From an uncultured Armatimonadetes bacterium (GTDB taxonomy: Bacteria > Armatimonadota > UBA5829 > DTJY01): 64,000 nt of DNA. Shown one piece after another: positions 24,001 to 30,000 of this stretch. A program made the position numbers. Each line of letters opens with the position of its first letter. Positions within the stretch are counted from its first letter, which is position 1. The stretch spans positions 416,001-480,000 of the forward strand of contig OY970325.1 of the NCBI GenBank assembly GCA_963717145.1. The letters run 5' to 3'.

Positions 24001-27000
24001 GTAGGACAATCTACCGCGTCATCTTTTTCCGTCCTCGCAGCAGCAGGAATCCGACTCCTCCTGCGAGCGCGAGCAACGACGATGGTTCGGGAACCATGGT
24101 TGAGAGATAGATATCCGTGCGCCGTTCGGTGCCTTCTCCTGCCCAAGCTACCTTATTGCCGTACACGGAAGGGCTCCAGCCATAAGTGCTTTCACTAACG
24201 CGGCTGATGCCGTGAACAGGATCGAAAGACCGGACCCGGGCCAGATCGATCCCACTCTGCCACACGACCAAGTCGCCCCATAGCTGCGTATATTGGACTT
24301 GAGACCACTCGGTGAACCAATGTTCAGCAAGCGTCCTCCACCCCCCTGCTGGTGTCCATTCATTAAGGTAACCTGGTATCAGATCATAGCCATTGCCGTT
24401 CCAATGATCGTAGCCAAGCGACCAGGCGACCACCTTGTCCTCATACACGGCGGGCGATATCCCACTCCCCAGGTTTACCGCTCCTCCTTCCGCAGTCCAC
24501 ATATACGTCCCGTGCTGGCTGTCATCCCAGACCACGCGGTTTCCCCAGATCTTTGGATCTTCCTGCCACGTGTTGCTCGGGAACAGCGCTCTATTGCCGT
24601 TTATGGGGTCATACATGTAGACCTGCGGTCTGCCGCTCTCCCAATTCTCATAGACAACGGTGTCGCCGAAGATGGATGCGTCGTATTGATCTCCCGGCGC
24701 GGTGCTTATCGGCCTCTCGCCGTTGATGGGATCATAGATATACAGATCGAGTTGGTCGTTCACGTAGTGGTTCGTCACCAGCTTGTCTCCATACACGGCG
24801 TTTATATTCCGATTTACGCCATCGCCGCCCAGCAGTCGTCTTGATGCCTGAGCCTGATCCCGAACGTAGATTTCCCCGTAGCTGCTCTCCCAGCTAGCAT
24901 AGTAGAGGTTGTCTCCCCAGACTTTCGGTGTATGTTCAGCCCATGGCGTGTTGGTGATCCTTTGTTCCTGCCATATCTGCTGGGAGAACGCATGCGTGGA
25001 GAGGATGGCCCCAAGAGTGAGGGCCAGGAGGGTAATGCGAGTCGTCTTCATTCGTGTACCGCCTTCCGTTCGGTGTGCTGGTACTGCTGAAAACCTTCCG
25101 CTACTATGTGAGACACTGCTTGGCCGCAAAAGGTTAGGCCGTTGAAGTGGAAAAGCCGGCAAACCTCACAGTACTCTATCTGCAAGATTCGTGCCAGTTA
25201 CGCGTTTGTCGGCATATCTACGGAAAGTCGTCGTTGGGGCAGGCGATCGACGTGCTGGGCGATCGTGCGCGGTGTCGTGTAGTGGCCGTGCCTCTGTGCC
25301 GGCCATATCACGTTGCAGGCCGGCACAGAGGCACGGCCACTACATGCTCAGTAGAGCCCTTCGAGGAGCACTTCGCGGCCGAGAGGGATGACCTCGCAGT
25401 ACTTCCACAGGCTGTCCAGGAAGCAGCGGTTGGCGCACAGTCCGCCGGAGACGTAGAGCCTCTCGGGCTTCTGCGCGAAGGTGTGGACGTTGAACGCGAT
25501 GCCGTGAACGAACGCCGCGAGCGCATCCTCCGCCAAGCCCCCGTGGATGATCGCGTCGAAAATCCTCTCGATGGCGAACACCCCGCAGGTCACCGGCAGG
25601 CGCTGATCCGAGACCGGCAGCCTGCTGTAGTCCACCTTGTAGTACTCGCCGAGCAGCTCCAGCGTGAACCCCGTCGTCGCCCCGCACGCCTGGTTCCAGT
25701 CGAGCTTGTCGAGCTTGCGATCGGTGAACCGAACGTACTTCGTGTCCCGGCAGCCGATGTCCACCACCGTGAAGTTGTCCTCGTGTACCAGCTTGAGGCT
25801 CCCCTGTGCGAGGGCGACAAGCTCGTTCTCGTAGCAGTCGGTCCGTCCACGTCCGAGGTGCCCGGTCGCGACATCGAAGCGGATCGACTCGTCGGCCAGG
25901 ACCTGGCGTGTCGGCGCAATAAGAACTTCATTCACCTCGAGGTTCTTGATCTTGCTCCACGAACTTCCACAGTCAGCAATCACAGTAGGCATGGTTGATG
26001 GTTAATGGTCTATTGTCCAGTCTCATGACATTATGAACACCGTGGGTTGAAAAGAAGGAGGTGCATGCGGTAGTCTCTTTGATGATCGCCAAACCAAAAA
26101 AGGAGACCACTCGCATGCAGATCCATTCTAACGCAACCAGCAATATGAAGCAACGGCGGTTTTTCAGGCAGAGTCCCAAGAGCTGCAGAAAGCTCGCAGA
26201 TATCTGCCATGTATCGCCGGCAACAGTCTGCAAATGGAAGGCCCGGGGTGACCAGCAAGACCGCAGCAGTCGGCCCAGGAAGATCCATTATGCATTCAGC
26301 CCCGAAGAGGAGGAGATCATCCTCTCGCTCCGGGACAAAGGTCTAGCACTCGATGCACTGGTGCGTGCAGTAGTCACAGTTCTGCCGAATGCAGAACGCG
26401 CCAGTATACATCGCTTACTGAGCAGAAAAGGGGTGAGCAGACTCCCCCAGTACCAAAAAGAAAAGAGAGAAAGTCCAGGCAAGTTCAAAGAGTATCTGCC
26501 TGGATACCTTCACATAGACTGTTTCTACCTGCCCAAGATCGGGGGCAAGAGGAAGTATTGCTTCGTTGCGGTAGACAGAGCAACAAGGCTAGCCTTCCTC
26601 CAGGTGTACGACAACCTAACCAAGGAATCCGCAGTGGGCTTCCTTGGACTGTGCATGTGGTTCTATCCGTTCATGATCCACAAGATCCTGACAGACAACG
26701 GTAGAGAGTTCACTCTGGCCAATTGGAGCCGTTGGGGCAGTCCGGCGAAGAGACCTCACTTCTTTGATGAAGTATGCTCAGCCTGTGGTATTGAACACAG
26801 GCTCACCCGGCCGTATACACCAAAGACCAACGGTCTGGTGGAACGCATGAACGGACTGATCCAGGAGGGCACGTACAAGATGCACAGATATCCTGGATAT
26901 CCGGAGTTGATAGATGGACTCCACCAGTGGCTGACCATCTACAATCTAAGGAGACAGCACAGCGCGATCGGTGGCAAGACACCCTATGAGAAGGTCTGCG

Positions 27001-30000
27001 ACTGGTACGCGCAAAGACCAGATCTGTTTATCAAAGAGCCTACCGACTTACTGAACTACCGTTCACAACGTGGTGGGACTTGACAGTTGATGGTTCATGG
27101 TTAATGGGGAATGGGAATGGGAAATGAGACTTGGTCTGCCATCAACCATCAACCATTTCCCCGTAGTCTGACGAACGCCGAGACCTTCGCGACTACGCTG
27201 TTTGTCACCGGGCCGTCGCAGTCCACATACAGGCCGTGGTGCTTCTCGGCCAGATACCGCGCCAGGCTGTTTTTCGCACAGAACGACTGCGCGTAGAAGA
27301 CCGTCGGGACAGCCGGATCGACCTCCATCTCGAGTTCGAGGTCGGCTGGCGCCCCGGCCTCGACGCACCTCGACCAGCCGTAGACGTGAGTCGTATCCGG
27401 GAAGAGTCGCAGCAGATCGAAGTCGTGCGGAGGAACGCCCCAGAACCCGTGAGTCGGCTCGACCCACTTGTGCCGCTTGCGGTTCGGTGCGACCACCGTA
27501 TTGGTGATCCGTTTGATCTTCTCCACGAGCGGCAATCCGCACGTCGAGATCGTGATCGGCCCCCGCTCCGTCTCGGTGTTGCGTGTCTCCACGATCGGAA
27601 AGCCCAAGTCGCTCAGGATGATAGCCGCGAACCGTCCGCCGTCGCATTTATCCTCGCCGATCGCTGCGATGATGATTCGAAGCTCCTTGCGGAGGTGGAC
27701 CGAGTTGTCCACGATGTTGGTGATGATCTGGCAGTACGCATCCGGCACAAGGCCGCACGGAGGCGCGCTCATGTCCAGGTCCAGGTCGATGAACTCATCG
27801 AACGGGTGCTTGCGCCTGTACTGATCTATCACCTGTCGGGGAGGCACTCCCCAGTAGCCGATTAGCTTTGACTGAGCCATATGATCCGCGCGTAGTATAG
27901 CACGCGGCCCCTTCGGCAGTCCATCTTGACCGAGAGGGCCGATACAGGCTATAATGCAGTAGCATTCCGGGGTCGTCCAACGGCAGGACACGGGCCTTTG
28001 GAGCCCGGTATTCAGGTTCGAATCCTGACCCCGGAGCCACATCTTTCACCCCAACTCCCACCACCGCTTGACACATCCGACGCTTCCTGCCATCATCGGT
28101 GTGCGGACCCTCACCCCCGACCCCTCTCCCTCAGAAGGGCGAGGGGAGCAGCTTGCAGTCCCCCCTCGCCCTTCTGAGGGAGAGGGGTCGGGGGTGAGGG
28201 TCCGTGCCAAAGGGAGGAATCGAACCAATGGACCATTCGAGGAGGGATTTCCTGCGCCGAAGCGGTATGGCACTCGTGGGAGTCGCGCTGGCACCGGAAC
28301 TGGTCGGCGCGCAGACGACAGGAGGCACGGAGAGAAGCATGGACAAGAAGATCAGGATCGGCGTGGTCGGCGGCGGATTCGGGGCCGCGTTCCACTGGCA
28401 TCGGGACCCGAACTGCATCGTCGAGGCGGTGAGCGACCTCAGACCGGACAGGCGCAAGCATCTCCAGGACGTCTATGGGTGCAACAAGCCCTACGATTCG
28501 CTGGAGGATCTGATCAAGGACAAGGACGTGGATGCGGTGGCGATATTCACCGGCGCGCCGGACCACGTGAAGCATGCCGTCGCCTGCATGAAGGCCGGCA
28601 AGCACGTGATCTCCGCCGTTCCCGCCTGCATCTCGCTCGACCAGGCGGAGGAACTCCTCGCCGCGCAGAAGAAGACCGGCCTGACCTACATGATGGCCGA
28701 GACGAGCTACTATCACCCCGTCTTCATCTCGGCGCGCAAGTTCTATGCCGAGGGCAAGTTCGGCGATATCTACTACACCGAGTCCGAGTACCACCACGCG
28801 GGGATGGAATACTCGCTCTGGGAGGACGCGCAGGGCAAGACCTGGCGATGGGCCTACCCGCCGATGCTCTATCCGACCCACTGCACCTCGTTCCTCGTCG
28901 GGCTCACGGGCGAGCGGCTGACGGAGGTCTCCTGCATCGGCTGGGGCGACGGCGACCCGATCATGGACGGCAACATCTACAACAACAAGTTCTGGAACGA
29001 GACCGCGCTCTTCAAGACCGACAGGGGCAACGCCTTCCGCGTCTCGATCAACTGGCGAGGGGCGTTCGGCGGGACGGAGCGGGCGCAGTGGTATGGCAGC
29101 AAGATGAGCCTGTTCGAGGGGCATCCGAACGGTGTGGGACCGGTAATGCGAAGATCGACGGACAAGTTCGTCAAGGACGGGGCAGGGTATGATGTCGGTC
29201 TGGCGGCGTTCGAGCAGTACGATACGCCGAAGTGGGCCGAGATGCTGCTCCCCGAGCCGATGCGCGTCGGCGGCGGACACGACGGGGCCGAGCCGTTCCT
29301 GACGCACGAGTTCATCGATGCGCTGGTGAACGGTCGCAAGCCCGCGATCGACATCCACGAGGCGCTGGCGTATACCGTGCCGGGGATCATCGCGCACAAG
29401 TCGGCGGTCGAGGGCGGCAAGCAGATGAAGGTCCCGAGCTTCGACCGGTAGCGGGGAAGTGAACAGTCGACGGTGAACGGTGAATGGTGAACGGTGCAAA
29501 TGGTTGGGGCAGGAGTTGGACTCCTGCCCCGTGTGGAAAAGCTGTTTGATGCGAGGGATGATCTACCGTCGCCTTCGGATGAGCCCAGCCAGTGCGAGCA
29601 GGCCGCTCCCCAGTGCGAGGAGGCTCGACGGCTCGGGGACGACGTTGTGCCACAGGACCGCGTCATACTTGTTTGTGGCCCAGTTGTGCGCGTAGCCGGA
29701 GATCCAGATATCGTTGCCCACCACCTCGATGCTTCGTGCGCTGGATTCCTGATGCCCAGTGCCCAGTAAGGCGTGGAGATCCACAAAGCTCTCCGCCGTT
29801 CCGCTCCATATGCCCGCGTGGCCACCGCTCCCGAAAGACGCGCCTCCGACCTGCAGGCCGCCGGAGACGTCTCCGATAGACGAACTGATGGCACCGGCGG
29901 GATTGAGGTCCATCCAGCTTGCCGCCGTGCCACTCCACATGCCGGCATGATCATGCGCCTCTCCGAACTGCTGCGCACCTGAAGCGTCACGGACCATAGA

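Follow-up and report, generated by a model that had tools for sequence, protein, structure and literature searches.

Among the insertion sequences (IS) that target REPs, ISPsy8, IS1397 and ISKpn1 belong to the IS3 family. Together with ISPa11, ISPpu9/10, ISRm19/22 and IS621, they show a 100% association with a dispersed intergenic palindromic repeat and cut at one fixed position of a 21-65-bp REP, ISPsy8 doing so in both orientations (Tobes and Pareja 2006, PMC1525189; PMC3184786; available sections of both). An IS481-family element of P. fluorescens SBW25 likewise targets REPs, with every copy at one position of an intergenic repeat. The accessible part of that report describes a RAYT-type REP target, a 4-bp duplication, 49-bp inverted repeats and a length of 1.3 kb, as well as a new copy with no true duplication that had brought some of its flank along (Ngan et al. 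2024, PMC11708052). For the IS4-family enzyme of Tn5/IS50, work on synthetic targets, summarised in a section of PMC1525189, found that target choice favours clusters of overlapping consensus sites, a degenerate palindromic preference being strongest where similar sites overlap periodically. Intergenic heptamer arrays are known from Xanthomonas, Nostoc and Calothrix; they are short, mostly of ~4 units, some of them form inverted pairs, and they are generally without IS association in the sections available (Rehm et al. 2015, PMC4692102). REP targeting by IS481 and IS3 elements is already published, and no published IS targeting 6-8-bp tandem arrays, heptamer arrays included, was found in a search of mostly open literature and main texts, without ISfinder; the terms sought were absent from the available part of PMC10045372 (IS481EU).

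The genome of an uncultured Armatimonadetes bacterium (G000) contains two IS that sit at tandem arrays of this kind. One copy of the first lies in the window, i.e. the whole 64-kb stretch of DNA that was analysed, where the following features were assigned:

25348..25992, minus strand: flanking host gene, 214 aa, with a weak BadF/BcrA-type CoA-activase ATPase match below cut-offs
25991..26013, plus strand: left part of the split heptamer array, forming the left arm of the hairpin; the downstream minus-strand gene has its start codon overlapped by the first unit of this part
26008..26013, plus strand: left 6-mer at the target-duplication position; as an array unit it is rare (5/619), and the copy at contig position 1678784 has the same 6-mer on its left
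26014..27085, plus strand: one of the 12 copies of the IS481-type insertion sequence, 1072 bp long with TGT...ACA ends
26014..26038, plus strand: left terminal inverted repeat, ~25 bp, imperfect
26052..26129, plus strand: RNA hairpin predicted by folding, which takes in both the ribosome-binding site and the transposase start codon
26115..27083, plus strand: IS481 transposase, 322 aa, with a helical N-terminal part and an RNase H-fold DDE core; the stop codon lies within the right end
27061..27085, plus strand: right terminal inverted repeat, finishing in an outward-reading -35-like hexamer at 27080-27085
27086..27091, plus strand: right 6-mer at the target-duplication position, a consensus unit with 2 mismatches to the left 6-mer
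27086..27110, plus strand: right part of the split heptamer array, continuing the left arm in register
27139..27157, minus strand: inverted heptamer arm of the REP-like hairpin, from which the upstream minus-strand gene takes its stop codon
27149..28042, minus strand: flanking host gene, 297 aa, without NCBIfam or Pfam match

Elements of the IS481 family measure ~1.0-1.3 kb, and the family traits of TGT...ACA ends, imperfect inverted repeats, a single rve-type DDE ORF and a short target duplication are all present here. A circular transposition intermediate is a further trait of the family. As regards the family label given in the preliminary description, the NCBIfam IS481 model NF033577 is by far the best family (E 2e-64), at a score of 217.6 bits just below the cut-off of 224; plasmid proteins 38% identical to the transposase carry IS481 annotation. 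Close relatives of the transposase number 1,442. The transposase contains the domains rve and rve_3, its residues D135, D194 and E243 are invariant across 36 sequences, and no domain was found beyond the helical N-terminal part and the DDE core. Folding of 26014-26135 gave -39 kcal/mol (z -3.2). In IS-free relatives the 214-aa gene adjoins the next gene.

As the preliminary description had stated, all 12 copies of the element are bordered on both sides by ATGGTTG heptamer units in one register; each array orientation accounts for six. The copies are 99.8-100% identical; 10 are uninterrupted (1072-1073 bp, the window copy occupying exactly 26014-27085) and two carry nested elements. The intergenic heptamer arrays of Xanthomonas, Nostoc and Calothrix go by the name STRR. 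Defined as at least three units, the arrays of G000 number 201 and total 5.5 kb or 0.11% of the genome, as against 0 and 1 arrays in two codon-shuffled genomes; under this definition the total is larger than the 3.1 kb reported earlier but of similar magnitude, ~0.1% of 5.37 Mb. Because ~195 other arrays are free of IS, and contigs of related strains span the window site with the array and without the IS, the arrays are real targets that are present independently of the element. As targets of an IS they differ from the arrays described in the available sections of PMC4692102. The insertion point has a fixed register, yet any unit of either arm is used, 20-96 bp off the partner arm. The REP-targeting trait of a position within a dispersed intergenic palindromic repeat is found in 12/12 copies, and the IS3 element described below has 8/8 complete copies at or beside arrays; the trait of one fixed position in the repeat is found neither for the IS481 element (any unit) nor for IS3 (0-16 bp, no register). 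Compared with the SBW25 element, the target is a 7-bp tandem unit in either arm and the duplication is 6 bp, and the preference can be derived from the array-free sites of a relative. Hairpin or cruciform structure as an added signal had no effect, as paired arms occur at 11/12 IS sites vs 158/195 IS-free arrays (p 0.70).

The claim that both elements insert only into arrays holds for the IS481 element within this genome; it fails for the IS481 lineage, and taken literally it fails for IS3. In other genomes, related IS481 elements lie in arrays at 3/15 sites (G009), 0/8 (G294), 0/8 (CAVYTV010000001) and 3/3 (G004, in different heptamers). An alignment-based scan of genome contigs brought up relatives, a single-protein query having returned none; among the 77 of 80 loci examined (three on short contigs were omitted, and several had wrongly placed ends), one (L118), the single copy in its genome, lies in an array. 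The heptamers hit by the G004 copies and by one Sulfurimonadaceae copy also fit (YYRR-N3)n, and G294 is nearly without such arrays (3 matches per strand vs 45-89). Twelve end pairs in G009 have perfect 6-bp duplications, 10 of them outside arrays; 6-bp duplications were found likewise in 7/12 copies here and in 7 pairs in G294. The 10 non-array G009 sites yield a palindromic, 7-bp-periodic preference, YYRR-N3-YYRR-N3-YYRR. Over the non-array G009 half-sites (n=23), YYRR matches amount to 77/92 at the duplication and 76/92 at +7, and to 51/92 at +14 and 43/92 at +21. The +7 peak recurs in G294 (43/64, p 0.004) and in Campylobacterota half-sites (n=107).

A matrix from these 10 G009 sites only, belonging to a transposase with an unassembled interior and ends 89% and 75% identical, placed 26.7% of its weight in the ATGG arrays that make up 0.11% of G000, a 247-fold enrichment reached by 0/60 random-site control matrices (maximum 0.43%). 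It selected the observed register (mean weight 2212 vs ≤1.0) and gave ≤0.1-fold on hexamer and octamer arrays. The array hits predicted are 27-53% genome-wide and 58-68% if only non-coding insertions survive (the mask being a crude ORF call), with P(12/12) at 1e-7 to 1e-2; matrices from more distant relatives predict an array share of just 0.5% and 1.4%. The array rate itself differs between G000 and G009 (p 4e-5). Since the motif predicts an array share of just 27-68%, the targeting in 12/12 copies is mostly, though incompletely, explained by the intrinsic periodic preference of the transposase. Several G009 sites lie within long open frames, and selection against genic insertion is therefore not absolute.

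We favour, with a probability of roughly 0.6, the explanation that an intrinsic 7-bp-periodic preference of the IS481 element meets host arrays, with a separate mechanism for IS3. An ordinary single-ORF DDE transposase makes a 6-bp staggered cut, as the 6-bp duplications at unique sites show, and prefers a palindrome of ~18-20 bp with pyrimidine-purine tetrads (YYRR) in the middle of the duplication and again at a distance of 7 bp on each flank, as seen at the relatives' non-array sites. A (YYRR-N3)n array with an acceptable linker would present a preferred site at every unit, so that the host ATGGTTG arrays would be the best and densest targets of the genome, in line with the prediction. Recognition may proceed via DNA bending at YR steps, by analogy with general DDE enzymology, and loss of genic insertions together with a somewhat sharper preference of this copy would lift the share to ~100%. 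In contrast to Tn5/IS50, the 7-bp period and the host arrays are natural. Repeat targeting can thus arise without guide RNA or extra protein, the periodic preference largely explaining why the IS481 element lands in the arrays; the finding of REPs by DDE-enzyme IS has so far been mostly unexplained. The natural series of 0/8, 3/15, 3/3 and 12/12 array insertions shows a route, i.e. a pre-existing periodic preference plus a host repeat of equal period, and the prediction for IS481 is quantitative. Heptamer arrays, a repeat class of unknown role, are tied to mobile DNA in a specific way, and a small transposase becomes available whose 18-20-bp preference directs it to harmless places between genes.

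The flanks of the copies bear on a further explanation, namely that the element takes one or more array units along, either in a circle intermediate whose spacer they form or through one-ended transfer that recombination within the array resolves, and that these units pair with the next array; spread from array to array would then be self-reinforcing, the motif having no role but to seed it. In keeping with this, 5/12 duplications are mismatched, as against 0/10 of the G009 paired non-array sites (p 0.04; unpaired G009 ends are left out of the latter figure), and array lengths favour replacement of one duplicated unit over loss of one base without duplication by 3,600-7,200-fold. Insertion without duplication and with one base deleted was rejected for the copies as a whole, and for the five mismatched ones is disfavoured by array length. 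Among the four mismatched ATGG-orientation copies, two left 6-mers that are rare as array units (5 and 20 of 619) each occur in two copies (simulated P 2e-5, post hoc), and each pair agrees in its allele at IS position 989, haplotype agreement alone being weak (~0.2 by chance). Two copies also have 65 bp of right flank in common that is absent elsewhere, and the new SBW25 copy brought 4 bp of flank into its REP (available sections of PMC11708052). This recurrence of rare flank units suggests that flanks were copied between sites. Conversely, 7/12 duplications are perfect, where 16% would be expected from 6-mers that simply neighbour each other in an array (p 0.001), the alleles at position 989 disagree in two pairs of putative right-flank donors, and ordinary gene conversion after insertion yields an identical picture, so homing guided by flanks appears unlikely. 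If flank carry-over is true, a new targeting mode is added. Also unlikely, to a similar degree, is an array specialist arising in two linked steps, 7-bp-periodic DNA-shape reading followed by carried donor units that act as a DNA homology guide. If true, this would amount to guide-like homing of a DDE transposase whose target shifts with the host's heptamer family, and a long history of co-evolution with enzymes of this sort might then lie behind the (YYRR-N3)n grammar that most of the bacterial heptamer arrays show here. Under the preferred explanation by periodic preference, one duplicated unit at 5/12 sites would later have been swapped for a unit of another IS-bearing array, via gene conversion or donor-flank carry-over. 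Reciprocal flank swapping accounts for three unmatched duplications in CAVYTV010000001 but not for those in G000, since reordering the left 6-mers there does not give the right ones.

The second element, of 1233 bp, is assigned to IS3 as had been proposed (NF033516, 371.6 bits vs a cut-off of 160), and the family traits of TG...CA ends, OrfA/OrfB overlap in the -1 frame with an A-rich slippery site and 3-4-bp duplication are present. Its OrfA/OrfB and 3-bp duplications resemble those of ISPsy8 (PMC1525189, sections available). The array association described earlier was reproduced: 8/8 complete copies have a same-strand GAGTAT/GGGAGTAT array 0-16 bp past the right end (0, 0, 0, ~0-12, 6, 6, 15 and 16 bp; in three cases the gap consists of leftover right-end sequence of the element itself). 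A strict detector recognised 6/8, and the other two are degenerate arrays that were read by eye. Counted by orientation, the target space amounts to 0.07% of the genome. Three left ends exist besides the complete copies, and the window contains none of these copies or ends. Two outer left ends lie in non-array DNA; further exceptions are a copy 6 bp ahead of its array and at least two re-inserted into the element's own right end. Duplications of 3 bp occur at 6/8 loci and split pre-existing arrays. Unlike that of the REP-targeting IS, the targeting is polar, in one orientation and not tied to a register, and arrays of 6-bp as well as of 8-bp units serve as targets. Relatives lie at arrays in 2/3 cases (G004, close) and 0/12 (distant). 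The IS481 element combines a fixed register with both orientations, IS3 combines no register with one orientation, and the two probably use different mechanisms. The analysis turned up neither a motif nor a protein feature or host factor behind IS3 targeting. The IS3 transpososome would most likely be recruited to GAGT-core arrays, by its own DNA-binding domain or an array-bound host protein, and would insert at the array or just 5' of it, right end toward the array, leaving 3-bp duplications, with later insertions striking the right end of the resident copy. The pattern itself is observed; this account of recruitment is tentative, falling slightly short of even odds, and less certain than the IS481 part.

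Host-factor tethering or selection, whereby both transposases are drawn in by a host protein or a DNA structure present at the arrays, or insertion is broad and persists in intergenic arrays alone, would fit the presence of two unrelated IS families at arrays in one genome, the intergenic position of at least 9/12 IS481 sites (crude gene call), the polar, register-free IS3 pattern and the usual place of the GAGTAT arrays, a short way ahead of a gene start and on its sense strand. As a common cause it is nonetheless improbable, given that each IS is confined to its own class among more than 20 array classes, that the IS481 register is predictable from array-free sites and that hairpin pairing adds nothing. 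The arrays are also avoided by five other multicopy IS families, among them several intergenic ones, with 1/172 ends within 20 bp; the detector is blind to insertion-split arrays, recovering just 6/23 IS481 ends, and this control therefore rests partly on flank reading among the flanks listed. For IS3 alone, tethering or selection is the leading option.

It is very unlikely that the arrays are products of the elements, as footprints or as duplications that have expanded, or that they belong to the mobile unit. A 6-bp duplication plus one base does give a 7-bp period, and 18/26 heptamer families in G000 fit (YYRR-N3)n vs 44% expected, but the seventh base is G or C and not a base of an IS end, such arrays also exist in G007, where the transposase has no match, and the IS-free arrays, the related strains and the IS3 duplications speak for arrays that were already there. 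RNA-guided targeting as in IS110/IS1111 elements, which have a DEDD recombinase and an internal target-matching sequence, is scarcely credible despite the structured 5' non-coding region of the IS481 element, as the enzyme is DDE, likeness of the arrays to IS ends or to an internal guide was rejected with the longest word common to either IS and its targets at chance level, an Rfam search matched solely a nearby tRNA, and the hairpin covers the start codon, as translation control would. REP/REPIN repeats are associated with a RAYT (Y1) transposase that they flank, and G000 contains seven Y1_Tnp matches.

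The preliminary description placed the copies of an IS481-family element within heptamer arrays in one register, and this is borne out in the Armatimonadetes genome G000. The copy in the window is as follows:

26014-27085, IS481-family element of 1072 bp, with TGT...ACA ends and one 322-aa open reading frame

BLAST located 12 copies at 99.8-100% identity, two of them interrupted by other insertion sequences, and all 12 are flanked by units of ATGGTTG-type arrays in a single register, six for each array orientation. The best named relatives of the transposase belong to Armatimonadota. 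Such arrays, of the ATGGTTG type, number 201 in G000 and total 5.5 kb, as compared to 0 and 1 in two shuffled genomes. Pairing of the arms into imperfect hairpins was observed for 11 of the 12 occupied arrays and 158 of the 195 free ones; as most of the arrays thus form imperfect hairpin arms, they are REP-like elements made of tandem units. At the window site, contigs from two other runs bridge the position without the element, with the array retained between the same two flanking genes (one contig per run, 85-95% alike and hence from other strains or species). Array units also provide one of the flanking genes with its start codon (window 25990-25992) and the second with its stop codon (27149-27151). 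Unlike G000 with its short dispersed arrays, genome G013 has perfect ATGGTTG units in one long run (G013:C1:264985-265700, 16 matches).

Targeting of REPs by insertion sequences, IS481 and OrfA/OrfB elements included, is already described in passages of PMC1525189, PMC11708052 and PMC3184786, and the G000 elements are a variant of this theme. PMC4692102 describes heptamer arrays as in general unconnected with insertion sequences, while the heptamer arrays of G000 are IS481 targets. A literature search of incomplete coverage returned neither an insertion sequence targeting 6-8-bp tandem arrays nor a 7-bp-periodic target motif.

The further claim that the element inserts only into arrays holds in G000 (12/12) but not across the lineage. 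A transposase match was found in 5 of 40 related genomes. Genome G009 carries about 15 copies of a relative with an unassembled interior (ends 89% and 75% identical) and perfect 6-bp duplications common to both ends in 12 pairs; only 3 of its 15 left ends lie within arrays, and none of the eight IS481-type copies in either G294 or CAVYTV010000001 does so. In G004 all three copies reside in heptamer-periodic DNA that differs in sequence from the G000 arrays; at one of them no more than two units can be seen. Among seven metagenome ends not shared with G004, two are in ATGG-type arrays and one in a two-unit stretch, and a Sulfurimonadaceae copy sits in a further, different heptamer array. Because relatives often insert outside arrays, array-only insertion is a feature of G000 and not of the lineage. 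In CAVYTV010000001, the flanks of three copies (L069, L070 and L075) are cyclically swapped, which clearly documents that copies have recombined with one another.

The non-array half-sites of G009 revealed a target motif. The tetrad YYRR is matched at 77 of 92 positions at the duplication centre (paired sites counted twice) and again at 76 of 92 positions 7 bp out (p 8e-11), with no peak at 14 or 21 bp. The +7 peak recurs in G294 and in Campylobacterota relatives of 42% identity. A 20-bp matrix built from 10 paired non-array G009 sites was run on G000 devoid of its IS481 copies, and gave the ATGG arrays, which make up 0.11% of the genome, 26.7% of its weight, as compared to a maximum of 0.43% for 60 matrices from random nearby sites. 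It favours the observed array register (weight 2212 versus ≤1.0), ranks ATGG-type and closely similar heptamers highest, assigns next to no weight to the arrays of the IS3 element, and has 32 of its 50 top-scoring sites within ATGG arrays. The grammar (YYRR-N3)n also fits every array occupied by IS481-type copies in other genomes, and G294, which lacks array insertions, has 3 long matches per strand versus 45-89 in the others. For Tn5, a passage of PMC1525189 cites the principle that insertion is favoured where consensus sites overlap in clusters. No extra domain was found in the IS481 transposase and no target-like word inside the IS481 or IS3 elements, and arm pairing adds no effect on IS481 array occupancy. 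Of the heptamer array families in G000, which differ in sequence and are not independent, 18/26 fit (YYRR-N3)n versus 44% expected.

The G009 matrix predicts 27-53% array insertions, or 58-68% if survival is limited to non-coding sites. At these rates the probability of 12/12 is 1e-7 to 1e-2, and the predicted share drops to 0.5-1.4% with matrices derived from more distant relatives. Something must therefore act besides the motif, be it a sharper enzyme, selection or another mechanism. The motif offers a testable explanation for most, though not all, of the array targeting by IS481.

A perfect 6-bp duplication is seen at 7 of the 12 copies, exceeding the 16% expected from identity of adjacent units. 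In the other five, including the window copy, the left and right in-register 6-mers differ. Two rare units each form the left 6-mer of two copies, both members of such a pair having the same base at IS position 989, and a unique 65-bp right flank is common to two copies; for two possible right-flank donors the alleles disagree. Gene conversion between IS-bearing arrays and carry-over of donor flank both fit the mismatches. The latter resembles the Pseudomonas fluorescens case described in part of PMC11708052, where a new IS481 copy brought 4 bp of flank to its REP site. Such flank replacement may conceal a homology-guided step. Loss of one base is disfavoured, as it gives arrays of 5, 5, 6, 6 and 6 units versus 3-5 elsewhere, and a replaced duplicate fits the array lengths 3,600-7,200 times better. 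Swapped flanks were ruled out as the source.

The IS3 element is represented in G000 by eight complete 1233-bp copies and three further left ends, none within the window. A GAGTAT- or GGGAGTAT-type array lies 0-16 bp beyond each right end on the same strand, confirming for all eight complete copies the array reported at or near this end (a strict detector found six; two are degenerate and were read by eye). The oriented target space amounts to 0.07% of the genome, and 3-bp duplications occur at 6/8 loci. In five other IS families, 1 of 172 ends lay near these arrays, the control flanks listed also being read directly since the detector undercounts arrays split by insertion. The association of both elements with arrays is real and far above chance. 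A close relative in G004 (ends 87% and 79%) has two of three copies in the same array classes, as compared to 0/12 for distant relatives (OrfB ~60% identity where measured), although in G009 such arrays are few as well.

The two unit lengths and the lack of a fixed register argue against a simple phase readout by IS3. Its single orientation speaks for either tethering at the array or selection, the latter being possible because GAGTAT-type arrays are mostly positioned ahead of genes, on their sense strand. IS3 targeting stands as a pattern only. IS3-family elements perform targeted insertion at inverted repeats, and re-insertion of IS3 into its own end, remnants of which form three of the gaps to the array, resembles this behaviour. 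Most GAGTAT arrays end in a Shine-Dalgarno-like stretch directly before a sense-strand start codon and several have a common short motif ahead of them, which suggests that they belong to a 5' module of mobile or regulatory nature. At G000:C1:3257633 an IS3 copy lies just ahead of a stop codon, and its terminal TGA apparently provides an in-frame stop.

In four other IS families of G000 (1.36, 1.47, 1.50 and 1.43 kb) and in a non-autonomous element of 175 bp, most copies adjoin sigma70 promoters: a -35-like hexamer lies within a few bases of them and a -10-like box follows farther out. One 1.5-kb copy is inserted at the -35-like hexamer of an IS481 right end. Elsewhere in the window, a 43-bp unit repeated 7.5 times (87% matches) forms a non-coding-looking tandem array (43592-43915) directly after a stop codon, and the 628-bp stretch at 36466-37093 has a second copy at contig position 1795130. 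A 225-aa gene with no Pfam match (44274-44951) has an octamer hairpin on one side and, on the other, a mosaic array in which two heptamer types are combined (whole region 44128-45100).
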